From IMG/VR virus record IMGVR_UViG_3300028591_000112, positions 31,934 through 95,933 of that record: 64,000 bases of DNA. One strand, 5' to 3'. The notes under the pieces were generated by a model. The model did no database searches, was not told the origin of the DNA, and worked only from the letters and a program-made list of their open reading frames with translations. Positions within the stretch are counted from its first letter, which is position 1. Each line of letters opens with the position of its first letter. Positions 1 through 40,421 of the stretch are shown in pieces. Made by a program: the position numbers and the translations under genes. Origin of the DNA: a virus (taxonomy: Duplodnaviria; Heunggongvirae; Uroviricota; Caudoviricetes).

Positions 1-3000
1 CTAGTTTTGCAGAAGCATATCAAAAAATGGCTGCGGATTCTGCAGAATGAGCAAGAACATCTAAAAAGAATTTAATTGTTGGAACAACTGGAACTGGAGC
101 TGTAGCTACTGGTAAATTTAAAACTAAATGAAGTGCTAGTAATACTAGTGGAGTAGTGTCTAATACTCAAAAAGGAGAATTATCTTCTGCAGAAGGTTTT
201 TCTCAAAATATAGATTGAAATTCAGTTGCGAGCTATTATTCTGACTTATCAGATTCATATAGAAAAGCTGCAGGAAATACTCAAGCTAAAATTGCAGAAA
301 TTCAAGCACGTAATGCAGGATTATTAAATAATTTAAGAGGTGCTGGAACAGGTAGTCGTTCTGGTGGTGGGGGCAGTGCAGACGAAGCTAATATTATTGA
401 TTTTTTAGATGATACTGCAGATAGATATCATAAAGTTAATACTCAAATTGAAAAAACTAGTAATTCATTATCGTTATTACAATCTCAACAAGAAAAATTT
501 GTTGGAGCAAAATTAATTGATAATTTAAATAAACAATGAAATTTATTAAATCATCAAATAGAAAATTATAATGAAAAATTAAGAATAGCTAATGATGAAC
601 AAACGGAGTTAGCTAGTAAATTAGCTGGTCAAGGCGTAGTATTTAATGCAGATGGCACTATTTCTAATTATATGGAGGCTTTCCAAGCGCAAGAAAATTA
701 TGTAAATAGTTTAATTGCACAATATAATGGATTATCTGCCGCACAACAAGAAGTATGAGACAATAATAAAACAATTGATAATGCTAAAGATAACTTTAAT
801 AAATTTAAAGAGGATATGGATAGATATGATGAATTAATATCTAGTTTTATTCCTGATTTACAACAATCAATTCAAGATACTGTTGATAAAATGATTGATA
901 TAAATGTAGAAAAATTTAATAAAGAAATAACTATTCATTTAGACATGAATGCGGCAACAAGAGAATGAAATGAATGGAAGAAACGTGCTATTGATGGTAT
1001 TGAAACAGACAATATTTTAGGAAATGCACGTGCTAGATTAGAAGATTTCTACACATACTTCAATGGCGGAAATGGCGATATTGGAGTAGGAACTAGACAT
1101 GTAAATGAAGTTCTTGCAGAACTATATAAAATGGATAATGGACAATCTACTTTATATGGTAATAATAGAGCCAAAGCATTAGAAAATTTAGAAACATATT
1201 ATGAACAATTAAAGAAATCTATTACTGAATTTATCGCTTTACAAGATGAATTATATCAAGATGTTTTAGATGAAATGGATAGTGTTTCTAATGAATTTAG
1301 CAGACAAATTAAGAGTTATGAATATTTAAGAGAAATTTTAAATCATGATATGAAAGTTATTCAACTTGCATATGGAGAAGATTCATATAATCAATTAGCT
1401 AAATTCTATGAAGCAAATCAAAATAATTATGAAAAACAATTAGAATTCCAAAGACAACAACGTGATTTCTGGTACGAAGAAATGAGAAGTGCGGAAGAGG
1501 GTTCAAAAGCATGAGATTCCGCAAGAGAAAAATGAGAAGAAGCAACTAAGTCATTTAATAGTTTATTAGAATCTACTCTTGAAAATGCTAGAAAGAAATT
1601 TGAAAATACTATTAATGATATATTTAAACAATTAAATAATAAAGTTACTGGCGGAATGGGATTAGGATACGTTAATGAACAATGGAATTTAATTAATAAA
1701 AATGCAGATGAATATTTAGATACAATTAATGCTGTATCAGGAATTCAATCTCTTGAACAAAAATATTTAGATGCATTAAATAAATCAACAAGAGTATCAG
1801 ACCAAAGAAAAATTAGTGCTTTAATGGATGAAGAATTAAATTCATTAAAACAAAGAGATAAATTAACTCAATATGATTTAGATAGAGCAGAAAAGAAATA
1901 TAATTTAATGGTTGCTCAAATAGCATTAGAAGATGCTCAAAGAAATAAAAATCAGATGAGATTAAGACGTGATACTCAAGGCAATTATAGATATCAATAT
2001 GTTGCGGATCAAGATGCGGTTGCCGCAGCAGAAAGTGAATTAACAAATGCATATACTGATTTATATAATTTTGATTTAAATAGATATAAAGAAGTATTGA
2101 ACGAGATATATAGCTCTTGAGATGAGTATCAACAAAAAATGGCGGAGGCCGCATTAATCAATGACCCAGAATTAAGAGCACAAAAAGAGTTATTAATTCA
2201 AGAACAATATGGTGAATTAATTAATGGATTAGTTGAACAAAATCAAGAAATTAGAAATAATCTTCAAGAATCTGCTTTCTTATCATTAAGTAATTTATAT
2301 GAAGAAGATTTAATGAGATTCGCAGATATGACAATGAGTGAAAGAGAATTGTTGTTAAGTGAAGTTGGTGGAGGATTTGATTTATTACTTCAAATATATG
2401 GAGTTAATACTGAAGAATTTAGAAATATGACTGAAGACCAACAAAATGCAATAATGGAAAATATAGGCGGATCTATAAAAGCATTAAGCGGATATTATAA
2501 TGAAGACATATTAGCGTTTAGAAGAATGGGTGAAGCTGAACAAAGTATTATTGTTAATGCTATTGTTCCTCAATGGAATTCAGGCGTTCAAGCAATGGCG
2601 GAAGTATTCTATGGAGAAAATGGATTTGAAGCAAATACTATTGATGCATGGAATAATATTAAGGAAGCTGAAAATGAATATGCTAATGATTTAAATGAAT
2701 TAGAGTTAATTGCTAATGAGACATTTAGTGCTATTGCTGATGGTGAAGATGTTTCTATTGAAAAAGCTCAAGGTTTAATTGATATTAATCAAGAATTAAT
2801 TGATAAATATGGAGAAGAATTAAAAGCAGTTCAAGATGTTTATGCGGAAGTCAGTAGATTAGCAGATGAATATCATAGAGCGTATGAAGAAGCTACTAAA
2901 GCTGCGGAAGCCGCTTACAAATATAGACAACAAGAACGTGAAGCGGAAGCTGCGGCTGCGCAACAAGCAACGCAAGAAGCGATTAATAACTCAACTCCTT

Positions 3001-3647
3001 CAGTGGATATTGGCGGAAATGGATCTGGTACAGGAGGCTCTGGCGGAAGTAGCGAAGGCGCCGCCAACACGAATAGTGGTTCTTCTATATCACATGACCA
3101 AATGGTAGAATTAGTATATCAAATGGGTAGAGGAACTTATGGTAGTGGAGCTACTAGAAAGAGTAGAGTTGAATCTGCTTATCCTGGAATGTTCTCTATC
3201 GCACAAGCCATTTTAAATGAAGCTATTAATTCAGATTATTATAATTATAGTCATAATGGTACTACATGAAGAAACGGTACAGTAAGTAGAATTGCATCTA
3301 AGTATGGATATGATACTGGTGGTTATACTGGTGCTTGAGGAAATAATGGTAAATTAGCTTTCTTACATCAAAAAGAACTAGTATTAAATGCCAAAGATAC
3401 TGAAAATATGTTAAATACAGTAGCGATTATGAGAAATATGGCCTATGCTTTAGGTGAAAATACATTAGCTAGACTTGCAAATGTTGCCGCAGGTAACGGC
3501 GGTTCATATGGTTCTAGCGGAGATTTATTACAACAAGATGTTAATATACATGCGGAATTCCCTGGCGTAAGAGATGCTAGAGAAATTGAAGAAGCATTAA
3601 ATAATTTAGTTAATGCTGCCGCGCAAAAGGCTATGGAGACAAGGTAG
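1..3647 (+). CDS. tail tape measure protein (5' partial, >1214 aa)
   Basis: One frame stays open from the window edge to TAG at 3645-3647 when TGA is read as Trp. The ORF track shows it as five collinear same-frame fragments broken only at TGA. Coiled-coil-rich with a Gly-rich tract (GSGTGGSGGSSEG). Lies immediately upstream of the tail-tip genes. Confidence 0.7.
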
Positions 3648-10365: not shown

Positions 10366-12651
10366 ATGGCAGTATTATATACAAATGATAATGGGTATTC
10401 ACCATATTATACCTGTTCGGTTAGTTATGGTACTGTAACTCGTAGTGGTACTACAGTTATAGTACCAAGTGTAACTTTAACAATGACTCGAGGAGACGGT
10501 TATTGGACAGGTAATAGATTAGCATATTGTGCAGGTAGAACAACTAATGGAACTGATATTGCTAATAATATTACAATTAAAAATAGTGGAGCTCAATCAG
10601 CTTCAAGTTATAGTGTAAATATTGGAGATATTTCTTATACAAATAACACAAGTACTTCTGTACATTTATGCGTAAGAGTAGCTTCAACAGGTGGTAGTAG
10701 TACTTGGGGTAATTTCCAAGGTAATTCACCAGTAACAGTATTTGATTCAGATATTTCATGTCCTGCCGCAAATCCTAGCTTTACAGTTCAACCATCTGCA
10801 ACAGCAATTGATGAAACATCAGTAAGTTTAAACTTGGGTTCTGTTGATATTTCAAGTTATTTATATTATAAAATAGGAAGCGGAAGTTGGAATTATGCAA
10901 GTACAAATCCAGTTACAATCAGTGGATTAACTGCAGGTACTTCTTATAGTTTGACAGTTCAAGCACGAAACACTGCTGATACTAGTTTAACTACTAATTC
11001 AAATGCAGTTTCAGTTACTACATATGCTAACCCTAGTATATCTAGCTCTGGTTGGCCAGGTGATATTACGATGGACGCTGCAACTAAAAAAGCTAATTTT
11101 ATATTTACTAATCCCTTAGGTAGAACCATTACAATGACTGCTACTGTTGGTAGTTATACTGTTAGTGGAACAACAAATGGTACAACAGGTAGTTTAACAT
11201 TAGATTGTGATGCTATTTATAATCAAATTCCTACTGATACAGAAGCAACTATTACTTATTCTGCTTTAGGAGTTAATAGTAATGGGAAAAAAGTAAGGGC
11301 ATCTGAATCATATGCTAAACCAACAGTTTTGATTGCAGGATTTGCTTGACAGGCTGTCCATGATAGTAGTTTTGGTAGTGTATTTAGTAATACAGGAAAA
11401 GTAATTCAAAATCATAGTTATATTAAAGTAAAACATACTGGTTCATCCGCATCAAATTTTAGTACTATTGGTACACCAAATAAAGGTGCTTCTAGTATTA
11501 CAGGAGCCACAGTTAGTTTTGATGGTAAAGCGGCGCAAACATTAACAAATAGTTATGCGGCATATGTAAATACTTCAACTAAATATAGTTACTCAATAGA
11601 TCAAATGGCTATTATTACAATTACAGATAGTAGAGGATATACCAACAGTGCCAATGTTACTATTCCATTTGTTGCATATAGTAATCCAGTAGCGAGCATT
11701 TCCGCAAATAGAGATGGTGGTTTTAGTGAAAATTTAGTTTTAGTTTTATCAGGGACTTTTAGTAGTTTAGATGGATATAATTCAATTACTGCACTACAAT
11801 ATAAAGTAGGAAGTTCAGGAACATGAATATCTGCTACTGTTGTTAATAATAGAGCAGAAATTACTACTGAAACATTAGCGCCATCTGATTCTCAGGTTTA
11901 TTATGTAAAAGCCACTGATGCGACATCAACAGTTAGTATGGAAGCATCTACAATAGTTGATATAGGTCAAGCAATTGCATTTATTGATGATAGATATAAT
12001 GCAGTTGGTATAAATTGTTATCCTGGTAGTGCTCAAAAAGGTTTAGTATTATCTAATGATAGTAGTATTTATATTGGAACTCAAGATTTAGTTACAGCGT
12101 TAAAAGCACAAATTATTAATACTATTTATCCTGTTGGGGCTATTTATATGAGTTTAGATAATACTAATCCAGGCACTTTATTTGGAGTAGGAACTTGAGA
12201 ACAAATAACAGATAAATTTTTAGTTGCTGCAGGTACTTATTTTACAATGAGCACTCCTACTGGTGGAGCTAGTAGTGTTACTTTACAAACGGCTAATTTA
12301 CCTTCTCATAATCATAGTTTTACTGGATCTACTGTTAGTACAGATAGTCAAGGTTCACATGAACATTGATTTTATCCTAAGTTACAATGGCAAAATAGTA
12401 GTGTTCAATCAAATGGTAATGTAGTTCGTACAGCTAGTGGTTGGGCTCCAGATCTTGCGGGAAATTTAAGTGGTTCAATGACAGTTAATTATAATAGTTT
12501 ATCACAAGGAACTGGTTATGCTGGCGAACATACGCATTCAATAACATGCGGAGGTACTGTAGGTAATACAGGTAGTGGAACTGCATTTAGTATTATTCCA
12601 CCTTATCAAGTTGTTTATATTTGAAAAAGAGTTAATGATCCAACTCCTTAA
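10366..12651 (+). CDS. tail fibre / receptor-binding protein with FN3 domain and C-terminal phage tail-collar domain
   Basis: RBS aaaggagag. Fragments 10366-11349, 11605-11826 and 11938-12198 are in one frame joined through TGA codons; TAA at 12649-12651. FN3-like segment (VSLNLGSVD...ISGLTAGTSYSLTVQARN). C-terminal LPSHNHSF...GEHTHS motif typical of the phage tail-collar (MdpB-like) domain. Confidence 0.6.
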
Positions 12652-12719
12652 TTGCATGGGCAGAAATGAATAATATAATATAAATATTTTTTAAATTTAT
12701 TTAGAAAGGAAAATGAAAT

Positions 12720-13022
12720 ATGGAAAATTATATTGAAGTAACAATTTATTTAGCAACTTTATTCTTTACATGGATTTTAGGTATTCTTTCAAAAAAATCT
12801 ACTTGGGTAAATAATAATTATATTCCTCTTCAAAACTTTTTGATAGGTGTAGTTGTTGCTATTGTTAATTTTATTATTACAGAAGATTTTGCTGGTTCTT
12901 TAATTTATTTAACTTCTGGCTTAGTTGCTGGTGGAGGTTATGATATTTATCATGGTCTTGCTAAAGTTAAACAAGGAAATGAAGAATGAGAAGCTACTGA
13001 AGAAGAACAAATAGGTGAGTAA
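12720..13022 (+). CDS. holin-like small membrane protein
   Basis: 100 aa with two hydrophobic helices (LATLFFTWILGIL; LIGVVVAIVNFII) and a charged C-terminus. Sits immediately upstream of the endolysin. Confidence 0.5.
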
Positions 13023-13023
13023 T

Positions 13024-14001
13024 ATGACAGATACTGAATTAAAAAATGCAAGAGGCATTGATAGACAAAGAATTTTATTTCCAATGTATCATTATTCTCC
13101 TTATTATGGACATGGTGTAGGACATGATGGACAACATAGATGGTCTTATGCTATTGATTGTATAGGTAAAGATGGTGGTAAAGACGAAGTTTATGCTCCA
13201 TTTGATTGTACTGTTACAAATGTATTTGTAAAATCAGGTTGTTCTCCTGAAGTATGGCTTCAAAGTGATAAACCTGTATTAGCATCTAATGGAGACATTG
13301 ATTATTATACTTTTACTTATACACATCCTAGTGAAGTAAAAAACATGAAAGTAGGACAACAATTTAAACAAGGCGAATTCGTTTGTCATGAAGGAAATGA
13401 AGGTGTTTCCGCAGGCAATCATGTTCATGTTGAAATAGGTAAGGGTAAATCAAAAACTTGGTCTATTGAAAAACATGGCGGAACAACTTATTATATGAAT
13501 CAAAATAAAGTAAAACCTGAAAATGTATGGTTCTTACCTGAAACTAGTGTTATTGATTTTACTACTGATAAAATAGGAAGTAAATATTCTATTAAAAAGG
13601 AAAGTGAAATGACTAAATATGTAACTAGTAAAGATGGTTTATATTTACATAATGCAAAAAATTATAATCAAAGTAGCGAAATTGCTTTATTAGATTATAA
13701 TGAACCTTGTATAGTATTTGAAACAAGCGGCAGTTTTGCAAAAGTTTATGCTAGAGGTTTAGTTGGTTGGTGTAGTAATAAATATTTAGGAGCACAAGGT
13801 AAAAGTATAGAAAATGCTTATGTAAATTCAAAAAATGGTTTATGGTTACATAAAACTAAAGATTTTAAAGTAGTTAGTGAAATTGATTTAATGAAATATA
13901 AAGAAAAAGTAACTTGGATAAGCACATCAGGTAAATTTGCTTATGTTGATTACAAAGGTATAAAAGGATATTGTGCAAAAAATTATTTAACAAAGATATA
14001 G
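13024..14001 (+). CDS. endolysin: M23 (LytM/lysostaphin-like) peptidase with two C-terminal SH3b-like repeats
   Basis: RBS aggtgag before ATG 13024. HxH motif (SAGNHVHVEI) and KVGQQFKQGEF segment align with lysostaphin-type M23 catalytic core. Two ~60-aa internal repeats (YVTSKDGLYLHNAKN... and YVNSKNGLWLHKTKD...) resemble bacterial SH3 wall-binding domains. Confidence 0.65.
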   Translation: MTDTELKNARGIDRQRILFPMYHYSPYYGHGVGHDGQHRWSYAIDCIGKDGGKDEVYAPFDCTVTNVFVKSGCSPEVWLQSDKPVLASNGDIDYYTFTYTHPSEVKNMKVGQQFKQGEFVCHEGNEGVSAGNHVHVEIGKGKSKTWSIEKHGGTTYYMNQNKVKPENVWFLPETSVIDFTTDKIGSKYSIKKESEMTKYVTSKDGLYLHNAKNYNQSSEIALLDYNEPCIVFETSGSFAKVYARGLVGWCSNKYLGAQGKSIENAYVNSKNGLWLHKTKDFKVVSEIDLMKYKEKVTWISTSGKFAYVDYKGIKGYCAKNYLTKI

Positions 14002-14071
14002 AGATAATCTATATCTTTTTTTTATTTGGGTAGATGTAAATAATACATATAATCAAAAAATCAAATATTAT

Positions 14072-14101
14072 TGAAATAAATATAAAATAAAATAGAATGC
14101 A
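14072..14101 (+). promoter_or_regulatory. candidate promoter upstream of the tail fibre operon
   Basis: TTGAAA, 16-nt spacer, TAGAAT. A small hairpin atgcaattttttgcat lies just upstream of RBS aaaaaggagg. Confidence 0.25.
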
Positions 14102-14129
14102 ATTTTTTGCATAAAAAGGAGGAATAAAA

Positions 14130-17100
14130 ATGGCACAAGTTAGTTTTTATAAAATGCAAAATAGTGCATTATCTTCTTTCCCTATTAAAGAAGGACAAAT
14201 AATTTATGTTACAGATAGTAAAAGATTATATTTAGATAATGCTGCTAATTCAAGAATAGAAATGACTTCGTATAATTTAACTCAAGATAGTAATAATAAT
14301 CATATATTAATTTTTACAAAGCCAGATGGTACTACAGTTAGTTATACTATGCCAGATACATTATATAATGGCGGAGATCATATAATTATAGATGAAAATA
14401 ACAACATTGATTTAGATGAACAAACAACTGATAGAATTTATGGAGTAGCTACAAAAGAAGGTTCTGGAGAAACAGTTTCATTAGTAGATACAAGAGAAGC
14501 AAAAATGAAAGTTGGTTTAAAAGGTAATACAAGCCAAGAAACAACAACAGGGAAGAATTTGTTAGGTGTAAAAACTAATTTAAAAAAAACCACAACAAAT
14601 GGCATAACTTTTACTCCTGTGTTTAATTCAAGTAATTTATTAGAATATATTGAAGTTAGTGGTACTTGTACTGCTGCAACTACATATACAATATCAAATT
14701 CCGTTTCATTAACTGCAGATAGTTATCTATTAAGTGGATGTCCATCAGGTGGTGGTGCTAATACATATGGTTTAGAATTACGTGGAGGAGCATTCCCAAA
14801 AGATGTAGGCAGTGGTCGTTCATTTACTTTAACAAATGATTTCACATTTTGGGATTGTAGGATAACAATTGAAAAAGGTGCGACTTTATCTGCGTTAAAA
14901 TTTTATCCAATGCTAGTTCAAGGAACAACAGCTACTGACTACGAACCATACACAGGTGGGCAACCTTCACCTAACCCTTCATACCCTCAACCTATACAAG
15001 TAGTAAGTGGAGATAATACAATTGTTAGTACAGGGGTAAACCTATTAACATACCCTTATGTAGATACACCTAATAGTCCAAAGACTACCAATGGACTAAC
15101 TTGGACTGATAATGGAGATGGAACAATAAGTGTAAGTGGAACTGCAACAGGTTATAGTGATTTTGTATTATTCAATACTAACAAAAAATTAATGGTACAA
15201 CCAAATACAACTTATAATTTGAGTGGAATACCAAGTACGGCTTATCTAGTTTTTGATTTAAGTGAGTTCGATAGTGATAATGCTTTAATAGTTGTACACA
15301 ATAATATAAGAAACTCATCTTTTACAACTTCACCTAATGCAAGATGGCTACAAATAATAGCAAAAAGAAGTTCTAATAATCAAGCAACTGATACAATAAT
15401 AAAACCACAACTAGAATTAGGAAGCCAAGCTTCAACATTTGAACCATATACAGGAACATCTTATCAAGTAAATCTAGGTAATATAAAACTATGTAAAATA
15501 GGAGATTATCAAGATAAATTCTTTAAAGCAATAAATGGTAATACAATATACGATAGTTTAGATAGTACAATAAAAAATACTTTAGATTATGGTGAATGGT
15601 ATTTAGAAAAGAATATAGGTAAGGTTGTATTAGATGGTAGTGAAAGTGGATGGACTAAAAACCCTAGCATTACAACTACAAATGGTTATAGTAATAATGC
15701 TTTATTTCCATATAGAGTAAGTAATAGTGGAATATATTGTAATTATTTAAAACAAGTACTATCTTTAAGTGGTAATAAAACAGGCATATATAATGCAACT
15801 AATTGCAATTTCTTATTAGAAGGAACTGATTATGATACCGAAATAAAATTTAAAAATTGGTTAAGCACATATACACCAATAGTTTATTATCAAATGTCAA
15901 CACCAACATATACAAAAATAGAAGGTACACTAGCAAGTCAATTAAATGCAATAGAATATGCTATGTCTTATAACGGACAAACAAACATAACACAAGTAAA
16001 CAATGATAAACCATTTATAATAGATGCAAGTGCAATAGCAGGACTTAGTTTAAATAGTTTAGAAGAAGAAATAAATAGAATGGATTATATTTCTCAATCT
16101 GAAAAAGCTGCACCTAATGGTGTTGCTGAGCTAGATGACCATGGAATTATCTTATCTTCTCAATTACCTAGTTATGTAGATGATGTATTAGAATTTGCTG
16201 ATATGGCGTCTTTTCCAGCTCAGGGAGAAAATGGTAAGATTTATGTAGCGTTAGATACAAATTTAACATACAGATGAAGTGGAAGTGCTTATGTTGAGAT
16301 AAGTAAAAGTTTAGCACTAGGTGAAACTAGCTCAACTGCCTATCGCGGAGATAGAGGCGCTGCCGCATATAAACATGCAGTTACTAATAAAGGAAGTGCT
16401 TTTGCAAGTAATCTTTATAAAATTACTACTAATAGCGAAGGTCATGTAACAGCTGCGACTGCTGCAGTAAAATCAGACATAATTAATTTAGGAATCCCTG
16501 GCACTGCAAGTAACGGAGTAAAAATAAATGAAACAGATATCCAATTAGATGATAATGTTAATAATTTACTTTATGGAAATGAAGAAGTTATTGCAACTGA
16601 TGTTGAAAATGCTAGTTTAAATAATACATTACAAGGAAAATTAAATATAGAATTAAAAGGTAATACATATCAAGAAACAACATCAATAAGTGGTGGAGAT
16701 GAATATGATAGTCCAAGTCCTGACCACCCACAACCTATACAAGTAGTAAGTGGAGATAATGAGGTTGTTGTATGTGGGAAGAATTTATTAGATGTAAATA
16801 ACAATTTAATAAGTAGTATTCAAGGGTTAAGTTTTGTTGCAAATAATAATGGCTCATTTAGTTATAGTGGCACTTTAGAAAGTCATACTTGGGTTAATTT
16901 TATGAATAATGTTGGTACATTCATAAAAGCAGGTGAATATACAATATCAATAAGTAATTCTTTAAATTTTAATCTTGTTTGGTATTTTCAATACGAAGAT
17001 GGAACTAACAATACTTTCAGTATAACATCGGGCGATACATCAAGGACTATAACACTACAAAAAAATGTTGTTAGACATAGAGTAGGCTTTACATTTATGA

Positions 17101-18356
17101 CAATAGGTACAACATATAATGGTACATTAAAAATAATGCTTGAAAAAGGTTCAATTGCAACCTCATACCAACCATATCAAGAGCAAAAATATCCAATAAA
17201 TTTAGGTGTAGAGAATTTATTTGATAAAAATAATGCTAACGTATTAAATGCTTATTTATCAGGTTATAAAATTCTTGGTTATGCAACAAATCAAACTATA
17301 TATATACCAATAATAGGAGGTACAACTTATACTGTAACTAAAAAAGTTGGTGTAACAAATTTATCTCTTGCTTATACAACCACAACACCAACTATTGAGG
17401 GTGAAACTCTTGGAACTATAACAGCTACAAGCAAAACATATACAACTACTTCACCTATTAATGCTACGTTCTTATGTGTATTTGTAAGAAAAGATAGTGA
17501 TAGTGATTATACATTAGAAGAAATATTAGAAGGTTTAGAAATAGTTAAAGGTGATAAAGCACAACAAGTAAGTGATAACCCAATAGAACTATGTAATATA
17601 CCTAATACAAATTATCAAGATAAATTCTTTAAAGCAATAAATGGTAATACAATATACGATAATTTAGATAGTACAATAAAAAATACTTTAGATTATGGTA
17701 AATGGTATTTAGAAAAGAATATAGGTAAGGCTGTGTTAGATGGTAGTGAAAATTGGGTATATCCAACACAAATAGGAAGTAGTACATATTATAGATACGA
17801 AAATCAAAATTTTAGAAATAACGATTGTATGGTACATAGTCAATATTTAAGTGATAATTTTAAATACAATGGTACAACAGGACAAGTAGAACAAAATGTA
17901 ATCACAAATACTTCTGGTGCAAACACTAATAGATTATGGATAACAATAAATACATCTTTAACGAGTGGAACTACTGAAAATGATTTCAAAATTTGGTTAT
18001 CAACACATAATACAAATATCTATTATGTTTTAGAAACACCAACTTATACAAAAATAGAAGGTACACTAGCAAGTCAATTAGAAGATGTATGGAGAGCAAA
18101 TACATACGATAATCAAACTAACGTAAGTCAAGTAAATAATGATTTACCATTTATTTTAGATGTTTCAGCTCCAACATATACTATAAATGGAATGAATAAA
18201 GAATATGCACATAAAGAAGATGCAATTAATAAAGTAACCTCTATTTCAGATTCTTCTACAGATACTCAATATCCTAGTGCTAAATGTGTATATGATTTAG
18301 TTGGTAATGTAGAGACTATTCTAGAAACATTAGATATAGGAAATGGGGTATCATAA
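14130..18356 (+). CDS. tail fibre protein 1 (1408 aa) carrying two tandem receptor-binding cassettes
   Basis: Strong RBS aaaaaggaggaataaaaATG. ORF-track fragments 14130-16277 and 16902-18356 are the same frame, joined via TGA at 16275 with no TAA/TAG between them; TAA at 18354-18356. Internal duplication of a ~450-aa module (PNPSYPQPIQVVSGDN ... LCKIGDYQDKFFKAINGNTIYD ... QVNNDKPFI). Confidence 0.65.
15507..15624 (+). repeat. near-identical ~118-nt repeat inside the fibre genes (second copy 17613-17730)
   Basis: tatcaagataaattctttaaagcaataaatggtaatacaatatacgata...ttagatagtacaataaaaaatactttagattatggt...aatggtatttagaaaagaatataggtaagg occurs twice with about 3 mismatches. Confidence 0.8.
15975..16027 (+). 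repeat. 53-nt exact repeat at the fibre cassette C-termini (second copy 19985-20037)
   Basis: ggacaaacaaacataacacaagtaaacaatgataaaccatttataatagatgc is identical in fibre 1 and fibre 2. A related copy at about 18110-18165 encodes QVNNDLPFILD. Confidence 0.8.
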
Positions 18357-20068
18357 TGAGTATAGCAAATAAAATTGAAAATATAGAAACACATTTAACT
18401 GATAATTATTCAGTTTTAACATTAGCGGGAGCTGATTTAACTGATATAAATAAAAATCTTTATAATTTAAAACCTGAATGAAAAAAAAGATTATTATATT
18501 TTATGAATAATGGAACTCAAGATGTTTGAGATAATTGAGAAAAAGTAACTGGATCTGGTGAAGCTTTAACACTAAATAACGTTGTTGAAGCTCCACTAAA
18601 GCTGGTTTTAAATGGTAATACTAGTCAAGTAAGTTATACAGGAAAGAATTTATTTTCTACAAATTATAGCGATTATGATACAACAACTGATACTTATGGT
18701 TTTAGAAAGATAGTAGATGAAATACCAAGCGGTAAATATCTAGTTTTGTCTTTAATAGATAATGACACATCAGTATCTTTATCATCAAGTTTTTATTTAA
18801 TGCTAACAACTGATGGAACATTTAGTAGTGAAACTAAAAAAATGCCTATTGCACGTGGAAATAAGAGCTTAAATGAAAGTTATTTTTATACCAATGAATT
18901 AAAGTATATTAGTTTTTACCCTAAAGATGAAGAAACATTTAATAAATTATTTCAAAGATATAAAGTACAATACGAGTTAGTTGATAATACTACTCCTACC
19001 AACTATGAACCATATTGTGGTGGAACTGCATCACCTAATCCTTCATATCCACAACCTATACACGTAGCAAGTGGAGATAATAGTGTTGTAGTATGTGGGG
19101 GAAATATATACAACTACGATAATAACACAAACTTATCTAATTATTATCTTAATAATCAAGGTGTGTTTCAACAAGAAATAACACCAAGTTATACTTTTAT
19201 AAACGAAAAAATAAATATAACTTCAAAAACAATATCAATTTATATAGGTGCAAAAACAGGAACACCAAATATTAGATTAGGACAATTTAAAAGTGATGGG
19301 ACATTTATTAGTAGAACATTAATAAATACATCCACAAATAACATAACTTTAGATAGTAATTGTGATTATATTTGGTTATCAACAGACAAATATAGTACTA
19401 CACAATTTACAAATATATCAGTAATATATGGTAATTCAATATCATCTTACGAACCATATCAAAGTCAAACCTATCCTATATCACTAGGAACACTAGAACT
19501 ATGTAAAATAGGGGATTATCAAGACTATATCTATAAAAACATACCAACTGCTACTGACTACTCTAGTGATAGAGAATTAGGTGCTTGGTATTTAAAGAAG
19601 AATACAGGTAAGGTTGTATTAGATGGTAGTGAAGATGACTGGTCTAGTGAAGAAGCATATACAGGATATTATCGTTTTAAAGTTGCACGTATATTGCCAC
19701 TTCTTACAAGAGGAAATGATGGTTTTAATAATAGGTTTACACAAAGAGTAAGCCAACCACACGGAGATTACCAATACTTATATTTACAATCAAATAATGG
19801 GTATATACATATACAAATATTACAATCATTACTAACAAATGGTGATGTAAACACATTTAAAACTTGGTTAAGTACACATAACACAATAGTATATTATGTC
19901 CTAGCAACACCAACAATAACTGAAATAACTGATACTACATTAATAAATCAACTTAACGATATAGAATATGCTATGAGTAAAAAAGGACAAACAAACATAA
20001 CACAAGTAAACAATGATAAACCATTTATAATAGATGCTTGAGCATTATTAGACGATATTGATTCTTAA
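18356..20068 (+). CDS. tail fibre protein 2 (570 aa) with a third copy of the receptor-binding cassette
   Basis: ATG at 18356 overlaps the upstream TAA (taATG). The frame runs through TGA codons to TAA at 20066-20068. Shares PNPSYPQPIHVASGDN, LCKIGDYQD and the C-terminal QVNNDKPFIIDA module with fibre 1. Confidence 0.6.
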
Positions 20069-28179: not shown

Positions 28180-28208
28180 TAAAAAAGAAGTAGATTAACT
28201 CTACTTTT
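28180..28208 (-). terminator. rho-independent terminator overlapping the GT1 stop codon
   Basis: On the minus strand: aagtagag ttaatc tacttc tttttt. Confidence 0.45.
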
Positions 28209-29304
28209 TAAATTTTTTAACAACTTCTACAAAAGCTATATTATATTTATTATTCTCAGTTAAAGTTAACATACGGTTAAAATCAACATCTCAAGTTTCG
28301 CCAGGATTAGGCACTCTACCTAATGTTGCGTCACGAATTGATTTAGCTTTGTATGAAGGTAATGCTTTAACTGTATACATATATTCTCTGTCTTGAACAT
28401 ATGAACTTTTTCTTAATACAAATAATTCATTTCATCTATCTTTTTTAGGTATATATTTAAAATCTTTGGGGATATGATTATATATATCTTCAATAGGTAT
28501 ATTTTGCATATCAAAATCTACCATATAACAATTCTTTTTATCTTCTAATCCTATTTCATTAAATACTGGACATGGAGTAACTATTACTGGAACTCCCATA
28601 GATAAAGCCTCAACAACAGAATAACAATAGCCTTCGCTATCTGATAACTGGACTAAGTAATCAGCATTTTTTATGTATCCATTTATATCTAATCTGGGTT
28701 TCATATATACGATATTGGGATTATCAATAGCATTTGTATCAGTAGTAAATACAGTTCATAAATAAGGTATACCCGCATCATCAAGAGCTTTAGCTAATTT
28801 TATCATACGTTCTTTACCTTTTTCTCTTGATAAACGAGTGGCGGAAACGAGATTTAAAATACGCTTAGGTTCATCTAAAGCTAGTGGGTTATAGCATAAC
28901 TCACATTTTACTCCCATTAATTCAGAAAAACTTTTACAAGCCTGTTCACTTACTCCAATATATTTAGTAATTTTTCTACTAATAACAGGTCTAAAATTAG
29001 GGTTCTTTTTCATTAATGATTGATAGTCTGCATGAATTACAAAATAATAATCTTCAGCTTCAACATTATCAATAATATCCATACCATAATTGAAAAATGC
29101 TTTTTTACATTTTATTTTTTGACCTGTATATTGAATACATTTAGCATACTTTTGTAAACGTTCAAGTTGTTCTTTTTCTGCTCGTTGATATACAATAGTA
29201 ATGTCATAATCTTTATATTTTTTTATTAGATAATACAAGAAGGTTTCTGTTCCACCAATAAAATTAAGATATGAAAAATAATACATATTAGTTAATTCTA
29301 TCAT
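28201..29304 (-). CDS. glycosyltransferase family 1 (GT4-type)
   Basis: RBS ggaggagag before ATG 29304. Fragments 28756-29319 and 28432-28704 share a frame through TGA. C-terminal EGYCYSVVEALSMGVPVIVT matches the GT1 E-x7-E region. Confidence 0.65.
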
Positions 29305-29305
29305 A

Positions 29306-31219
29306 CTACTCTCCTCCATTATATATTTCTAATTTAAAATTTGGGTCTTTTTGTTGCTCTGCGGCAATCCACAAATCCGCGTATTCTCTATCATAAACTC
29401 AATTTTGTTTTCCTCCAGCTCAATGATATATTTTAAAATGAGGATGTGTTTTCGTAAAAGGAGATGAATTATATTGATTACTGATAAATAAAATATTATC
29501 TTTAAATACTGCGTTGATAGTATCTTGATCTGGATAATATAATTTATTTTCATTAACAAATTCATCTAATTCTTTAACTTTATTATCTTCTCTTATTTTT
29601 TGTAAATTAAATAAAATGACGCCACTGTTGATATAGTTATATTTATCTACAGGAATATTAGGTGTCATTAGATTAGTTTTAGCTCCTTCATCAATAATTC
29701 CCGCAGCATAATAATTAGATAAATCTATATCTCATAATTCATCTATATTATCTTTAACAATTAAATCAGTATCTAAATATAATACTTTATCTTCAGGAAT
29801 TAATAAAGCAAGATATAATCTTATTAATGACGCTTTTGAATATCCTGTATTATAATTTTCTCCATTAGGATTTAAACAATTAAGTTTATTTATATTGATA
29901 TATTCAATATTTATAAAAGGTAAATTTAATTCATCATCTTCTATAAATAGATATAATTTTCTATAATAATTATTACGAGTATAAGCATATAATCAAGTAT
30001 ATAAATATTGATAATAATTTTTAGTACATGATAATGCTATTACTTGTTTTTTATTTGACCACCAACCATATGCTATGTCTGATTGACTCCCTTCTCGAGG
30101 AAAATTATAGAAATATGGCGCAAAATCTATTCTACCTAGCTTAGGATTTCTTTTATCTCACATTTCCGCACAAAAATCATTATCTTCGCCATTTTGTCTG
30201 TCATTAAAGCGGTAGTCTCCAATAATGCGCTTAGAGAACATTGCTTGCCATACAGTACCAGAACCGAAAGCTCCTAACGGATTTGCATTACTTCTTATTT
30301 TAAATTGAATAATATCCATATCATCTGTTACCATACAATCAAGAACTAAATCAATAGCATTTTTTTCTGCCAACCAATCGTCGCCGTCAATAAACCAAAT
30401 ATAATCTGCTGCGGACGCATCCAAACCCGCGTTTCTTGCTCCTCCAGGTGAGCCGGCCGCGCACTCAATAATTTGATAATTTCAATCGCTATTGTCCATT
30501 TCTTTAATAATTATATCTTTTGTATTATCAGTGCAATTATCACAAACAAAAATAATTTTTCTTTTTGCATTAGTCTTATTTTCTTGTGCTTTTAAAGACC
30601 TTAAACAAGGTTTAATATATTTTTCTAAATTATGACATGGAATAATTATATCAACAGAAGGTGATATTGTTTTATTACTTATTTCTTGTCATTTTTCATT
30701 TAATATAGTATTTTTCTTTATATAATAAGCATAGATTTGATTTCCCATAAATAATTTTAATTCAGGGTATCTTGTTTTCATATTTTGTTTTGTTAAATCT
30801 GGTTGTTTATGAATTTCATATATATTTCCATCAACTTCTTCTTGCGGCAATTCATATGGAATTGCAACAATTATTTGTTTACATTTAGTTAATAAATATT
30901 TTAATACAGTTTTTGCTTCTAATATAGATAAATGTTCTAATACATCTCCCATAATAATTAAATCATAAGAATTATCTATTTTAAAATTTTTTATATCTTC
31001 ATTATATACATTAGTATATAATGTTTTTAAATTATGATTTTCAATGTTTGGTGCTCAAGCCTCAACAGCATCTATATTATTAAAATAACCATTTAATAAT
31101 TTTGCGTAAGTACCATTGCCCGCACCTATATCTAAAACTCTATCTGTTGGAGAAAAAGTTTCTTTTATATATTCAATTATTTGTTTTTTATAAATTGTAT
31201 AGCTTCCTGCATTATCCAT
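29306..31219 (-). CDS. three-domain enzyme: class I SAM methyltransferase + GT2 glycosyltransferase + GT8 glycosyltransferase (about 637 aa)
   Basis: RBS aaaggagaagtgtctATG at 31219. N-terminal VLDIGAGNGTYA (MTase motif I). Middle VDIIIPCHN...IIFVCDNCTDNT...FIDGDDWL (GT2 DxD). C-terminal YLDTDLIV, NSGVILFNL, HWAGGKQNW (GT8). The three parts are one frame separated only by in-frame TGA at 30689-30691 and 30155-30157; I translated the gaps and found no TAA/TAG. Confidence 0.6.
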
Positions 31220-31280
31220 AGACACTTCTCCTTTTTATTATTATAATCTAAATTTTTTATTCCATCAAAAAAGACTTAGA

Positions 31281-32714
31281 TTATTCATCTAAGTCTTTAG
31301 TTTTTTTATCTACAATATTTGCTAATAATGTTTTTATATTCACACCTAAACTATCTTCAGCTACTTTTAATACTTTGTCTATTTTTTGAGTATTGTTTTC
31401 AATTAATTTAGTAGATTGGTCACCATACATAGTAATATTATCTACATTAGCTAATGGAGCAGAAACTTCTTTTGCAACTTGTGGTAATGCAGTCATAATC
31501 ATTTCAATAACTGATGCTTCACCCATTTTCTTTTGAGCTTCAGCTTTTTTCTCAATACCTTCAGCTTCTGCTAATGCTTTAGCTTTAACACCAAATGCTT
31601 CAGCTTCAAGAATAGCTCTTTTACCTTCAGCTTCAGCAAGCAACTTAGCTTTAATACCTTCAGCCTCTCTTATGTTTGCTTCTTTCTCAGCTTCTGCACG
31701 AGCAATTCTAGCTTGTGCCTCTGCCTCTGCCGCCTTTATTGCACGAGTCTTATCAACTTCTGCTTGAACTTCTGCAGCATATTTTTCTGCATCTGCTTGT
31801 TTTTTGATTTCAGCTTCAAGTTCTTGTTCTTTTAATGAAACTTCTCTTTGCTTTAATAAAGTAATTTTTTCAGTTTTTGCAACTTGAGCATCTACTTCAT
31901 TTTCATTAATAGTTTTTTGTTGAATTGCTTTTTGAATATTATATGCGGCATCTGCATCTGCTTTTTTTCTATCTTGTTCAATTTGGAACTCCGCCTTTTT
32001 AATTGCTAGATTTTTTTGTTGTTCTGCAATTTTAGTATCTGCGGCAGCACGTGCACGCGCACCTTCTTCATCAGCAACTGCTTCCGCAATTTTAATTTCT
32101 TTATTAGCTTGTGCTTTTGCAATTTTAGCATTTTTTTGGATTTGTGCTAAATTATCAACACCTAGATTTACAATAGCATCATTCTCATCTGTTACATTTT
32201 GAACATTTAAATTTACTATTTCAAGACCTAATTTTGCTATGTCATCAGTGGCATTTTCTTGTATCTTTTGTGAAAATAATTGTTTATTATTAACTAAATC
32301 AGTTAATTTCATTTGTCCTATTATCTCACGCATATTACCTTCAAGAATTTGTTGAACATTATTTGCAATATCTTTTGTTGTTTGATTTAAGAAATGCTTA
32401 GCTGCAATTTGTATTAATTCATTATTTGTTGAAATTCTTACATTTGCAACAGCATCAACATCAACATTAATAAAATCATTTGTTGGAACTTTATTTGCTC
32501 TAACGTCTATTTGAATAAGTTTTAAAGGTATTTTATCTATTCTTTCAAAGAATGGTATTCTAAATGCGGCCTTGCCTGTAATAACTCTAGGCTCTTTCTT
32601 AATACCAGATATTAAAAATACCATATCGGGTGGGCATTTTACATAACTAACAGCAATTAAAATTCCCACTAAAATAATTACTGCTATAATAATTCCTAAT
32701 AAAATAAAACTCAT
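31281..32714 (-). CDS. SPFH/band-7 (flotillin-like) membrane protein
   Basis: Intact 477-aa ORF. N-terminal TM helix, SPFH region, then a long Ala/Glu/Lys-rich coiled coil typical of flotillin/YqiK. Confidence 0.6.
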   Translation of the reverse strand: MSFILLGIIIAVIILVGILIAVSYVKCPPDMVFLISGIKKEPRVITGKAAFRIPFFERIDKIPLKLIQIDVRANKVPTNDFINVDVDAVANVRISTNNELIQIAAKHFLNQTTKDIANNVQQILEGNMREIIGQMKLTDLVNNKQLFSQKIQENATDDIAKLGLEIVNLNVQNVTDENDAIVNLGVDNLAQIQKNAKIAKAQANKEIKIAEAVADEEGARARAAADTKIAEQQKNLAIKKAEFQIEQDRKKADADAAYNIQKAIQQKTINENEVDAQVAKTEKITLLKQREVSLKEQELEAEIKKQADAEKYAAEVQAEVDKTRAIKAAEAEAQARIARAEAEKEANIREAEGIKAKLLAEAEGKRAILEAEAFGVKAKALAEAEGIEKKAEAQKKMGEASVIEMIMTALPQVAKEVSAPLANVDNITMYGDQSTKLIENNTQKIDKVLKVAEDSLGVNIKTLLANIVDKKTKDLDE

Positions 32715-34682: not shown

Positions 34683-35465
34683 TTATTTTTTTATTTTTTT
34701 CAAAGTATATTCATTGTACTTATTATATCTTGTATGAACATCTTTTAATTCTTCTGCAGTTCAATCTTTGGTTAGTGCATCATAAAAGCCACAAGGTGCA
34801 TATTCAGGGCAGCCTCCGCATCTAATACATTGTGGTACACAAGCCCAGAAAATATCTTCATCATATTCTCTAATTGCTTCAATAACAGATTGTCAATATG
34901 CTCTTGTAGTAGGATCCGCACATGTGCATAATCTTTTATATGAAATATTTAGTATTGCTTGAATATTAGCTTCCATTTCCATTGGAACAGTATCCATTTG
35001 GCTACGTTGACTACGGTCTTTTACTACTGTTCTATCTGCTCTTTGTGTACCAACTCATTTTTCTACTCCTTCATGATGTCTAACAAAATGAGTAGATATT
35101 GCATATGGAATTTCATCTCATTTTCAACTAATTGTTCCACGTCTAATTGGACTATGTTCACATATTAATAATTTTCTCTTTCATTCATGAGAAGGTTCTT
35201 TATCTCCTGCCTCTTTTGAAATAGTTGTCATACAGGCTGATTTAATTTTTTTTCAATTAATATTAAAATCTGTAATTCTAGTTGTTGTATTGTATTTTTT
35301 AACCGGTGCTTCTTCTGTTTCAACTTTTGCTTGACCTTCTTTAAAATTAGCTTCTATTCCAGTATATTGATTTCTATATGGGAATAAAACTGTTTCTAAT
35401 TCAGTCATATCATTAATTTCTTTTACAATTGTTTTTTCTGGTGTAATAATCTTTATTTCGTACAT
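34683..35465 (-). CDS. hypothetical protein with C-terminal cysteine cluster (about 261 aa)
   Basis: ORF 35253-35465 continues through about 8 TGA codons to TAA at 34683-34685 (I translated it in full). Contains CEHSPIRRG, FVRHHEG and C-terminal CVPQCIRCGGCPEYAPCG. No confident family. Confidence 0.35.
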
Positions 35466-36635: not shown

Positions 36636-37134
36636 TTTCTATAGCCCCCGTCTTCATATTTATAATATTTTGATTGCGGCTACCGCGCCATTTCAATGTT
36701 ATATCTCGTTCTTGAAGTATAAACGGGCCTTCAATCAAATAATCTATAGTTGTTAATATTTCCCCAACTCCAATTAAATTAGTATCTTCTCTTAATTGAG
36801 ATAAAGTATACCCTGTCCATAAACAGATTTTAATATCTGGGAATTTATTTTTTACTACTTTTAATAGTAATTTTATGAACTCTCTTTTATCATAAGTATC
36901 TAAAGGTTCTCCACCTAAAATACTTAAATTTCTTTGTATTCCATTTGCAGAAATTAATTCAATAATATGATTTATTAAATCATTTCAATCTCAAGGTTTT
37001 CCGCCATTTGGATTTCAAGTTTCTGGATTATGACATCCCTGACAATGAAAAGGACAGCCTTGAAGGAATAAACTAACGCTTACTCCTTCCCCATTGACGA
37101 AATCATTACTATTAATACCTGCAACCCTAATCAT
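36628..37134 (-). CDS. nrdG: anaerobic ribonucleotide reductase activating protein (radical SAM)
   Basis: RBS ggagaattgaaATG. CPFHCQGCHNPETW (CxxxCxxC). Three TGA codons, one at a Trp aligning with E. coli NrdG (STW). Lies directly downstream of nrdD. Confidence 0.75.
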
Positions 37135-38095
37135 TTCAATTCTCCAATTTTTTAGAATGTTTATATCTTTGTTCAGTCTCTTGTTGTTTTCCTTTATTAA
37201 ATGCAGTTTTATAATCTCCTGTTAAATATCCTGTAACGCGTCTAAGTTGTTGAATATGCTCGCTTCCGCACATTGGACATTTATCATTAAATTCATCTGT
37301 ATATCCACAATCTAAACAAGTATCATTTGGAACATTAATTGCAAAATAAGGAATATCTTTATCCATAGCATAATTAACTATTTCTTCAAGAGCATCTAAA
37401 TTATGTTTAACGCCGCCCTCTAGTTCTACATATGTAATACATCCAGCATTACTATATCCAGTTAACTGTGCCTCAATATCTATTTTTTCAAATGGACTCA
37501 TTTCTTTCCATACTGGAACGTGAATACTATTAGTGAAATAATCTCTATCACTAACATTAGGAATAATTCCATATTGTTTTTTAAATTTTTTCATTGATGT
37601 ATAACACATATTCTCAGCAGGAGTATAATAAACACCAATGTTTAAATGTAAATCTTTTTTAAATTGTGCGCATCTATCTTTAAATAGTTGCTCAATTCTT
37701 TTAGCTAACTCCATACCTTCTTCTGTTGTATGGTCTTTACCAATTAATATTTGTAATGTTTCTGCTAAACCTATTTGGCCTATAACAAGAGTTCCATGTT
37801 TCATAGCACTTTCAACTGTTTTGCCATCATAGCCAAGCATAATATTGTTTTCATACATAAACTTAGCAGATTCAGGTGATTGATTAATAATCCAATTATA
37901 TCTTTCTACTAACATATCTTTTGCTTCATATATTTTTTTATCAAGCAATTCCATAAAAGCTTCAATGTCTTTATTAGCTTCCATAGCTAAAGTTGGCATT
38001 ACAATAGTAACAGGACAAATGTTTCCGCGGCCATCCTTAGTTTGAGGATTTACACCTGGATCAGCGTTTATATCACTTCCGTTATAGGTTCTACA
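37127..38095 (-). CDS. nrdD: anaerobic ribonucleoside-triphosphate reductase, exon 2 (C-terminal part including the glycyl-radical motif)
   Basis: Starts TGTAGAACC (CRTYNGS...GRGNICPVTIVMPTL). Zn ribbon CLDCG...CPMCG and RVTGYL glycyl radical site. Ends KLENWND then TAG at 37127. Confidence 0.75.
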
Positions 38096-39188: not shown

Positions 39189-40421
39189 ACCCATCGTTGA
39201 AACATATGTTTTAGGGTCGTTAACATCATATCCAGCATTAACTGACCAATCTACATTAACATAATTAGGATATAATCTTTGTGCTGTTGATTTAAGAGCT
39301 AATTTAAATAAATCATAATTAGGGTCTCCAGGTTTGCGGTTAACTCCTTTCATGCATTGAAATATACCACATGGGAATATTGGAGTTTTTCTAACTTTAC
39401 CCACACCTTCAATAGAACCTTCTAATAATGCTTTTGTAACCATTCTACCTTCAGGTAAAGTACAAGTACCATAATTAATTGAAGTAAATGGTAATTGATT
39501 GCCACTTCTACTTTGTAAAGTGTTTAAGTTATGATACATACCTTGAACAGCTTGCATTAATTCTTTTTCTGTTTTATTAAGTGCATACTTATAAACTTTT
39601 GGGAATTGTTTATAAAAGTCTGCGTCGATAGGTAATTCATCTGATTCTTGTCTTAAATCACTTTCTTCGATATATTCCATACCTTCATTAAAATGTTTTT
39701 TAAATGATAATCTAACATATGGAACCATAGTCCAGTCTAAATGACTTGCACTAACTCCGCCAAATTGTTGTAGGGATTGTAACTGAAATAATACTGCTAC
39801 TAATTGAAATGCTGTATTTATAGAACGGGCTGGTCTTACATCTGTTTGTCTAGTATTAAAACCTTCTGCTAATAATTTATCAAAAGGTACTGTTAAACAA
39901 TTGTGCATACCAACTGCATATGCATCTAAATCATGAATATAGATTTCATTATTTAAATGATTTTCTCTTGCCATAGGTGATACAATATAATTAAGAGCAT
40001 AATCTTTCATAAGTTCGCTTCTTGCTTCACCCATGCGGCCGCCGAATGAATACTCATCAACATTAGCATTTTGATTTTGAACATCAGAAGCTTCAATTTT
40101 CTCTTTAATATTTTGCATCAATTTACTATTAGCATTTCTAATTTTTGTTCTTTCTTCTCTATAAAGAATATAATTTTTAGCGACATCTTTTCTTTTTGTT
40201 GACATTAAACCTTTTTCAACAAGGTCTTGAATTTCTTCAATTCCAGGTGTTTCATCAACATCTAAAAAATATCCTTCAATATAACTAGCTATATTTTCAG
40301 CCTTTTCTCTTGCATAATCGGTAATTTCACCATCTACGTCTTGAAATGCGGCAAGAATCGCATTTTGAATCTTAGTTGCATCAAATGGAACTATACGTCC
40401 ATCTCTTTTAATAACATTCAT
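39189..40421 (-). CDS. nrdD: anaerobic ribonucleoside-triphosphate reductase, exon 1 (ATP-cone and N-terminal core)
   Basis: RBS gaggagg. MNVIKRDGRIVPFDATKIQNAI (ATP cone). Intact 411 codons with no TGA. Ends YVSTMG at the intron. Confidence 0.75.

Follow-up and report, generated by a model that had tools for sequence, protein, structure and literature searches.

The cassette at positions 12720-14001 of a stretch of phage DNA (IMG/VR record IMGVR_UViG_3300028591_000112, positions 31,934 to 95,933; the whole stretch of 64,000 nucleotides is called the window here) is best read as a canonical holin-endolysin pair. It would belong to a large phage of low guanine plus cytosine (GC) content that decodes TGA as tryptophan, in a host from the Bacilli that itself uses the standard genetic code. 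The probability of this reading is put at roughly 80%. The phage genome is about 131.6 kb long and its GC content is very low (28%); the 64 kb window is about half of its 131.6 kb source contig, and a 131,615-bp contig carries an identical copy of the 761 amino acid (aa) tail protein found in the window. Related contigs have sample names that suggest the gut or rumen of animals, and the phage appears to be one of the gut or rumen. Cultured phages gave no megablast match to positions 1-25000 of the window. Homologous loci and contigs are labelled L001-L024 below, with L018, L019 and L020 being sister contigs of the window.

As a lysis cassette this one is ordinary, and its parts belong to known kinds. 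A single feature makes it interesting beyond routine annotation: amid heavily recoded tail genes, TGA is almost absent from the lysin gene and from the fibre gene next to it, and the same is seen in a relative with a different lysin. This island suggests that lysis and host-range modules are still exchanged with standard-code phages.

The holin and the endolysin

The initial annotation, made from the letters alone, proposed a holin and an M23/SH3b endolysin at this place, and the proposal is borne out by two adjacent plus-strand open reading frames (ORFs) with Pfam and PHROG matches above the cut-offs (Table 1). The upstream ORF matches Pfam Phage_holin_5_2 (PF16079, Hol44 type) with 31.0 bits, the cut-off being 29.2, and the PHROG holin families 1299 and 1129 with E about 3e-5. 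Its product has two clear hydrophobic segments (around residues 7-24 and 36-54) and a weaker third one (around 57-72), and its C-terminal tail, WEATEEEQIGE, is acidic with a net charge of -5. It is 58-63% identical to the holins of 98-100 aa that precede the lysin in standard-code relatives. From this family membership it is expected to permeabilise the membrane.

The holin gene has three tryptophan codons, two TGG and one TGA, and the TGA is codon 90. At this position the standard-code relatives have either TGG for tryptophan (L002, L006) or TAT for tyrosine (L004, L021, L022, L023), and the TGA is kept in L018, L019 and L020. The 10 codons 3' of it are conserved up to a shared stop, and the holin is therefore 100 aa long and not 89. 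Termination at the TGA (12987-12989) was considered and rejected, as this is a sense codon and the real stop is the TAA at 13020-13022. The conservation of the C-terminus is only partly evidence at the protein level, because the last three codons overlap the Shine-Dalgarno sequence of the lysin, which is conserved at the nucleotide level. Full-length holin needs TGA to be decoded as tryptophan. The cassette of L018 (98.4% identical) has a further TGA in place of TGG at holin codon 18, so that two of the three tryptophan codons are TGA there.

The two genes are tightly joined. The Shine-Dalgarno sequence AGGTGAG (13013-13019) lies in the last holin codons, and the TAA, a single base and the ATG of the lysin come after it. 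When six phages are aligned, the nucleotides of this junction, ATAGGTGA(G/A)TAATATG, are the same throughout except at the G/A position, and translation of holin and lysin would be coupled through it. At the other end of the lysin gene there is a terminator-like hairpin, whose 11-bp AT-rich stem includes the lysin TAG and is followed by a run of T; it folds with -11.2 kcal/mol (z = -3.0 against shuffles) and falls below the G+C rule of the consensus terminator scan. A promoter-like site stands before the fibre gene, and such sites are not commoner across the region than in shuffles by consensus scan. The same scan gave no convincing sigma-70 promoter immediately before the holin gene, and for these two reasons an independent transcription unit is not claimed.

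The downstream gene encodes a protein with a Peptidase_M23 domain (PF01551, 31.0 bits, cut-off 28.7) and SH3_3 (PF08239, 44.9 bits in two stretches, cut-off 27), and Pfam matched no domain beyond these two. The M23 assignment of the initial annotation was thus recovered, while the repeats, for which SH3_5 had been named, are of the SH3_3 kind; SH3_5 is not among the Pfam matches at E<=1. Short homologues of 242-260 aa have a single SH3_3 repeat and end after repeat 1, and the window lysin and its closest relatives have two. M23 peptidases are defined by an H(x)nD and an HxH motif plus an extra histidine (PMC9662197). In the lysin these are H38-x6-D45, H133-V-H135 and H101, which stands 32 residues before the HxH. 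None of the five residues varies among 14 aligned homologues of 37-98% identity, so the supposed zinc-ligand histidines are present. When the family profile was compared with PDB, it matched the M23 domain of phi29 gp13 (3csq) with E=2.7e-18, the same H-x6-D spacing and the HxH aligned. An AlphaFold2 model of the protein has a mean predicted local distance difference test score (pLDDT) of 89.8, and Foldseek places 3csq first among its matches, then lysostaphin, LytM and EnpA, with probability 1.0; the phiSM101 endolysin (4krt), which carries tandem SH3_3 domains, comes lower in the list. Judged from sequence and model structure, the catalytic domain has every feature of an M23 peptidase that could be tested, and it belongs with the gp13-like subgroup.

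This relationship also bears on the substrate. It had been argued that the host must have a cross-bridged wall, since the lysin is of the M23 type. The C-terminal domain of gp13 is the closest characterised homologue, and gp13 is listed as a D,D-endopeptidase cutting the bond between D-alanine (D-Ala) and diaminopimelic acid (Dpm) (PMC9662197), for which reason that argument fails. By homology to gp13, the target would most likely be the cross-link from D-Ala to a diamino acid. The N-terminus of the lysin is not hydrophobic (maximum Kyte-Doolittle score over 15 residues, 0.79), and the enzyme should therefore depend on the holin for its release. A course of events can be proposed in which the endolysin, having no signal sequence, would accumulate in the cytoplasm and the holin would then open the membrane. 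The two SH3_3 repeats would tether the enzyme to the wall, and the M23 zinc peptidase, being of the gp13 type, would cut peptide links in the peptidoglycan.

It could be argued that the 325-aa protein is not an endolysin but a virion-associated peptidoglycan hydrolase of the tail, used for entry. A review notes that an endolytic role of M23 domains has rarely been proven (PMC9662197), and the gene is flanked by tail and fibre genes. Several other observations also weigh against the endolysin reading. The best structural and sequence matches are to gp13, a tail enzyme; among cultured phages, the best matches are Enterococcus phage genes annotated as tail lysins (33.6% identity, with 44% of the query covered); and the closest characterised homologues of the catalytic domain, the tail lysin of Enterococcus phage EF24C and gp13, are virion-associated. 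No other peptidoglycan hydrolase was found among the tail genes tested, which leaves room for a double role of the lysin. On the other hand, the lysin is small and ends in tandem SH3_3 repeats like the phiSM101 endolysin, and as only M23 and SH3_3 were matched in it, there is no hint of virion attachment. A holin always comes before it and is coupled to it. Standard-code relatives have the pair between the last tail gene and non-structural genes, and the relative L024 has, in the corresponding slot, a CHAP+CW_7 lysin of the classical type and a holin. A tail hydrolase is quite improbable in view of these points, and the protein is treated as an endolysin below.

The endolysin gene was initially described as having several TGA codons, and a code-corrected synthetic version was recommended. 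There are none: in the window and the three sister contigs it contains seven TGG and no in-frame TGA, and the frame 13024-14001 is open under the standard code. The endolysin is code-neutral and is itself independent of the recoded state. Its practical value is that of a compact enzyme, with M23 as the only catalytic domain and a tandem SH3_3 module, which can be expressed without recoding and is probably aimed at uncultured low-GC Bacilli of the gut or rumen.

TGA as a tryptophan codon

That the genome is recoded at TGA was already part of the initial annotation, and here it stood up well. Thirty of the 46 genes in the window have in-frame TGA and 16 have none, TGA makes up 42% of the tryptophan codons, and ORFs of 1206, 2195, 761 and 1408 aa would be broken by stops if TGA were not a sense codon. 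In tblastn comparisons with standard-code relatives, tryptophan is the commonest residue opposite TGA (14 of 44), and glycine is never found there; code 25, in which TGA means glycine, was rejected on this count. Between the window and L018, TGG and TGA are swapped at eight aligned codons (9384, 9585, 9606, 9627, 9699, 10504, 11824 and 12771). By these alignments, TGA means tryptophan in this phage. Seven of the eight swaps lie in a diverged flank and one (12771) in the holin, and tryptophan codons interconvert freely in the lineage. An ORF at 34683-35465 had been guessed to encode ThyX and was meant as a further test of TGA as tryptophan; it has no PDB or Pfam match and was dropped.

A point that counts against this reading is that no tRNA gene or Rfam match was found within the 64-kb window, and so no TGA suppressor there. 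Of the code-4 genomes studied by Borges et al., only 35% had suppressor tRNAs (bioRxiv 10.1101/2021.08.26.457843).

The use of TGA is graded along the minus-strand replication module (27625-63974). The promoter-proximal block at 51-64 kb, which includes genes for a DnaB-type helicase, an NAD ligase and a topoisomerase subunit, has 6 TGA and 29 TGG, and the block at 27.6-51 kb has 44 TGA and 41 TGG. Such a gradient is compatible with a code switch early in infection.

The likely host

The closest lysins (66-75% identical) are all from phages without in-frame TGA, in some of which genes end in TGA. More distant homologues, with 35-44% identity, occur in six genome assemblies called 'uncultured Bacilli' (L007-L012, 24-29% GC), and these six loci show no need for TGA as a sense codon. 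In L012, the single Bacilli locus that was annotated, the chromosomal homologue (M23 with one SH3_3) is clustered with a VanY D-Ala-D-Ala carboxypeptidase, NlpC/P60 proteins, an ABC transporter and an SPFH protein. In five of the six loci, similarly sized ORFs are found just upstream of the homologue. The comparison suggests that the phage lysin family derives from a host autolysin family. An SPFH gene is common to L008, L009 and L012. The DnaB-type helicase of the phage is closest (37-39% identity) to those of SPbeta-like, Geobacillus and other Firmicutes phages. Because the closest lysins are from standard-code phages, homologues are found in Bacilli assemblies and the helicase has this affinity, the host is probably, as far as sequence can tell, a low-GC member of the Bacilli with peptidoglycan and the standard code.

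A host that itself uses code 4, as Mycoplasma-like bacteria would, is another way to explain the TGA codons, which would then have no regulatory or evolutionary meaning in the cassette. It would suit the very low GC content of 28%, the presence of TGA in late and replication genes alike, and the lack of a suppressor tRNA within the window. It does not suit the 16 of 46 genes that are TGA-free or the TGA share of only 42% among tryptophan codons, and an endolysin that binds and cuts the wall would be pointless in a host without one. Furthermore, the same holin-lysin pair serves standard-code phages (58-63% aa identity for the holin, 66-75% for the lysin), and the homologues in Bacilli assemblies lie in standard-code loci beside other wall enzymes. 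A code-4 host is highly improbable, and a standard-code host from the Bacilli is assumed in what follows.

Dependence of lysis on the recoded state

Borges et al. describe lysis genes as using TGA for tryptophan preferentially (bioRxiv 10.1101/2021.08.26.457843). The cassette does not show this pattern: TGA accounts for 0 of 7 tryptophan codons in the lysin and for 1 of 3 (window) or 2 of 3 (L018) in the holin, the genome-wide share being 42%, and in L024 it accounts for 0 of 7 in the lysin and 0 of 4 in the holin. The cassette is a counter-example, and it suggests that the heaviest recoding is not always found in lysis genes. It had also been stated that lysis would depend on the recoded state. 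This is true of the holin, by its codon 90, but not of the lysin, which has no TGA; nor is the dependence conserved in the lineage, as both lysis genes of L024 are TGA-free. Overall, lysis depends on recoding only weakly.

Following the model of Borges et al., one could suppose that lysis is gated by the code switch, with the holin TGA as an evolved brake that holds until TGA suppression is active. The brake would act on full-length holin and, through translational coupling, perhaps on the yield of lysin too. The TGA at codon 90 is present in all four sister contigs, the TGA at codon 18 in L018 would abolish the holin under the standard code, and the tail protein directly upstream is recoded as well (5 TGA and 6 TGG). 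The minus-strand genes at 51-64 kb, being largely TGA-free (6 TGA, 29 TGG), would fit a switch part-way through infection. However, one or two TGA among three tryptophan codons is what chance would give at a share of 42%, and with holin and lysin TGA-free at the same position in L024, gating is not conserved in the lineage. In the window, a stop at holin codon 90 would remove only 11 residues. TGA is also found in the gene for DNA polymerase III alpha and in ORFs read by eye as a primase and a RecD-like helicase; since replication genes carry TGA, suppression must act well before lysis. Gated lysis is unlikely on this evidence.

A similarly speculative idea, to which only low odds can be given, is a split of labour within the cassette. 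The holin would be the sole code-dependent step, the endolysin and the host-range genes would be readable in both codes, and lysis would be controlled at the holin alone. The holin TGA at codon 90 is near the C-terminal tail, which in this scheme is called regulatory. If the scheme were true, lysin and host-range genes could be traded without hindrance among the standard-code and recoded phages that share a host, and the altered code would be a one-way, semi-permeable barrier to gene flow.

A TGA-poor island and gene exchange

The lysin and the first fibre gene together form an island (13024-18356) in which 1 of 21 tryptophan codons is TGA, against 55 of 112 in the other plus-strand genes. Fisher's test gives p=7e-5 for this difference, with boundaries chosen after seeing the data, and p=0.02 for the lysin alone; the longest run of TGG is 13 codons (permutation p=0.03). 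In L024 a comparable island at 12243-18901, which includes both lysin and holin, has TGA at 0 of 26 tryptophan codons, and its flanking genes at 35 of 76 (p=2.4e-6). In addition, a block at 11995-14500 is 97-99% identical to L018, and its flanks are 62-80% identical (sliding identity on a MAFFT alignment, with a blastn overview). Within the block are holin and lysin, the two intergenic regions, the C-terminal part of the tail protein upstream and the N-terminus of the fibre downstream. The cassette is thus set in a variable stretch of the tail-fibre cluster whose genes serve interaction with the host. Because identity is this high amid diverged flanks, the region must recombine, and by this comparison the block was recently exchanged between phages.

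Most likely, the lysis and host-range genes came in from standard-code phages of the same hosts or were traded with them. Three things tell against this. The island statistics come from two lineages, with post hoc boundaries; the best lysin match is 75% identical at the amino acid level, which leaves import without a close standard-code donor; and in the genes upstream of the lysin within the 98%-identical block, 4 of 8 tryptophan codons are TGA. More recoded relatives were sought, and none came from alignment scans of metagenome contigs and viral contigs with the 761-aa protein, or from a protein search. A second metagenome scan found nothing either, and a scan with the C-terminus of the giant tail protein gave only unrelated standard-code phages with 46-54% GC.

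Neither import nor chance would be needed if selection kept the lysin free of TGA, so that plenty of full-length enzyme is produced however well or badly suppression works. Within the same block, the lysin has TGA at 0 of 7 tryptophan codons in the four sister contigs and the upstream genes at 4-5 of 8 (Fisher p=0.08 for the window, 0.03 for L018). In the diverged flanks TGG/TGA flips are saturated, with 7 of 14 shared tryptophan codons differing, and the unrelated CHAP lysin of L024 is also at 0 of 7. The adjoining fibre gene, however, is equally poor in TGA (1 of 14). In L024, TGA is likewise absent from the gene for a GDSL-domain protein (0 of 10), from the holin gene (0 of 4) and from small ORFs nearby. 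As the neighbours of the L024 lysin share its lack of TGA, the scarcity points to the region and not to lysins. With only two lineages to draw on, selection on the lysin is rather unlikely, and exchange with standard-code phages is preferred.

Position of the cassette

The initial annotation placed the cassette between tail and fibre genes and not at the end of the late operon, and this is confirmed, the flanking genes on both sides being tail or fibre genes (Table 1). The 761-aa tail protein matches PHROG tail and tail-fibre families with E down to 1.9e-26, and PF21939 (Gp10_C) was matched on the identical product in L001. The standard-code relatives L002, L006, L015 and L016 have homologues of both fibres, encoded upstream of the holin; holin and lysin close their tail module, and small non-structural genes follow. 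As the fibres are upstream of the pair in these relatives and downstream of it in the window, the embedded position in the window is real. In all phage relatives examined (L002, L004, L006, L018, L021, L022 and L023), the lysin gene comes straight after a holin gene. In L024, a distant recoded relative (its tail protein and the 761-aa protein share 45% identity), the homologous tail proteins are followed by the CHAP+CW_7 lysin and a 143-aa membrane protein, a different holin, and then by large genes. The position of the cassette after the tail proteins is typical of the lineage.

The fibre genes themselves have some further features. The 1408-aa fibre contains an internal duplication, in which for example the motif CKIGDYQDKFFKAINGNTIYD...LDGSE occurs twice, and it has a C-terminal module in common with the next gene (18356-20068). 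The fibre of L018 diverges completely after the first ~135 residues (~14540). Such patterns point to modular shuffling of receptor-binding parts. In L004 and L021 (8245-9697), standard-code relatives with the same holin-lysin pair, a reverse transcriptase gene (RVT_1) overlaps a Phage_tail_APC gene immediately before the holin gene; the arrangement resembles a diversity-generating retroelement with a tail protein as its target.

Table 1. Features of the lysis cassette and its surroundings, in coordinates of the window.
Feature	Position	Strand	Basis or remark
Tape-measure protein	27-3647		Upstream of the cassette
Tail protein, 2195 aa	3756-10343		Upstream of the cassette
Tail protein, 761 aa, with Gp10_C-type C-terminal domain; 5 TGA, 6 TGG	10366-12651	+	Directly upstream of the cassette
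Exchanged block	11995-14500		Window compared with L018
Holin, 100 aa, stop TAA	12720-13022	+	Pfam PF16079, PHROG holin families, homology to holins of relatives
In-frame TGA, holin codon 90, read as tryptophan	12987-12989	+	Alignment to relatives
Holin-lysin junction	13013-13026	+	Shine-Dalgarno sequence, stop, one base, start
Endolysin, 325 aa, stop TAG; M23 domain and two SH3_3 repeats	13024-14001	+	Pfam, PHROG, alignment, AlphaFold2, Foldseek, PDB profile
M23 (LytM-type) catalytic domain, residues ~14-163	13063-13512	+	Extent from phrog_9066 (residues 14-163)
Catalytic residues H38, D45, H101, H133, H135	13135-13137, 13156-13158, 13324-13326, 13420-13422, 13426-13428	+	
SH3_3 repeat 1, residues ~197-255	13612-13788	+	Best Pfam stretch 205-255; beta-strand block of the model 197-251; SH3-type PDB matches 2kt8, 2kyb
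SH3_3 repeat 2, residues ~262-325	13807-13998	+	Second Pfam stretch; strands of the model 263-324; Foldseek 4krt
Terminator-like hairpin	13992-14027	+	RNA fold
Promoter-like site TTGAAA-16-TAGAAT	14071-14098	+	Consensus match only
Fibre protein, 1408 aa; 1 TGA (16275), 13 TGG	14130-18356	+	Directly downstream of the lysin; PHROG matches span the TGA codon
Second fibre protein, 570 aa; 4 TGA, 4 TGG	18356-20068	+	phrog_6782 tail fibre, E=2.1e-7

Other genes in the window

On the minus strand, two genes of the replication module are interrupted. The gene for anaerobic ribonucleotide reductase, nrdD (37127-40421), is split into two ORFs, one with the ATP-cone and positions 2-268 of the NRDD model (39165-40421) and one with NRDD positions 286-562 and the glycyl-radical domain (37127-37999), and an ORF for a GIY-YIG endonuclease (38220-38990) lies between them. 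This looks like an intron with a homing endonuclease; Rfam gave no group I intron at gathering score in the nrdD region. The gene for DNA polymerase III alpha (41054-46023) is split likewise, into an ORF with the PHP domain and the start of the NTPase domain (44674-46023) and an ORF with the end of the NTPase domain, the finger and the HHH domain (41054-43285). The 244-aa ORF between these halves (43731-44465) resembles L004 14476-14742 in part, and so do the GIY-YIG ORFs. Also on the minus strand are a group-1 glycosyltransferase gene (28201-29319), an ORF that resembles glycosyltransferase genes of relatives (29306-31225), and a gene for an SPFH/flotillin-like membrane protein (31281-32714), homologues of which are found near the M23 homologue in the Bacilli loci.

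Comparison with known systems

The closest known relative of the catalytic domain is the M23B D,D-endopeptidase domain of phi29 gp13 (3csq). Both have the same fold, and the H-x6-D motif, the third histidine and the HxH motif align. In contrast to the window protein, gp13 is an enzyme of the tail tip in which the M23 domain is fused to an N-terminal lysozyme-like domain and has no SH3 repeats; in the window, M23 is the sole catalytic domain, is followed by two SH3_3 repeats and is paired with a holin. Identity between the two is about 22-23%.

As a whole the cassette resembles a classical holin-endolysin pair of the Gram-positive kind. In its arrangement, the endolysin is like modular endolysins for Gram-positive hosts with tandem SH3_3 domains, such as the phiSM101 endolysin (4krt), and like lysostaphin (4lxc), both of which are Foldseek matches and have an N-terminal catalytic domain and C-terminal SH3-type repeats. 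The match to 4krt is so weak (about 11% identity, TM-score 0.19-0.20) that the likeness is one of overall architecture. The catalytic domain of this Clostridium perfringens phage enzyme is a muramidase. Lysostaphin is a secreted bacteriocin that has one SH3_5-type domain and cuts Gly-Gly bridges.

The holin, like other Hol44-type holins (PF16079), is small, has hydrophobic segments and a charged C-terminus, and is encoded directly upstream of the lysin. It differs from them in that its score is just above the cut-off (31.0 against 29.2), its tail is strongly acidic (-5) and its gene contains a recoded TGA.

Among whole phages, the nearest likeness is to the TGA-recoded gut phages of Borges et al., above all the 'Agate' clade (~127 kb; bioRxiv 10.1101/2021.08.26.457843). 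TGA as tryptophan, a low GC content and a genome of ~131.6 kb are in keeping with these phages, and the early genes in the window are likewise interrupted by GIY-YIG endonuclease ORFs. The phage looks Agate-like by description only, and placement in the clade is not implied. It is unlike the phages of Borges et al. in that its replication genes carry TGA, whereas its lysin and the adjoining fibre gene are nearly free of it.

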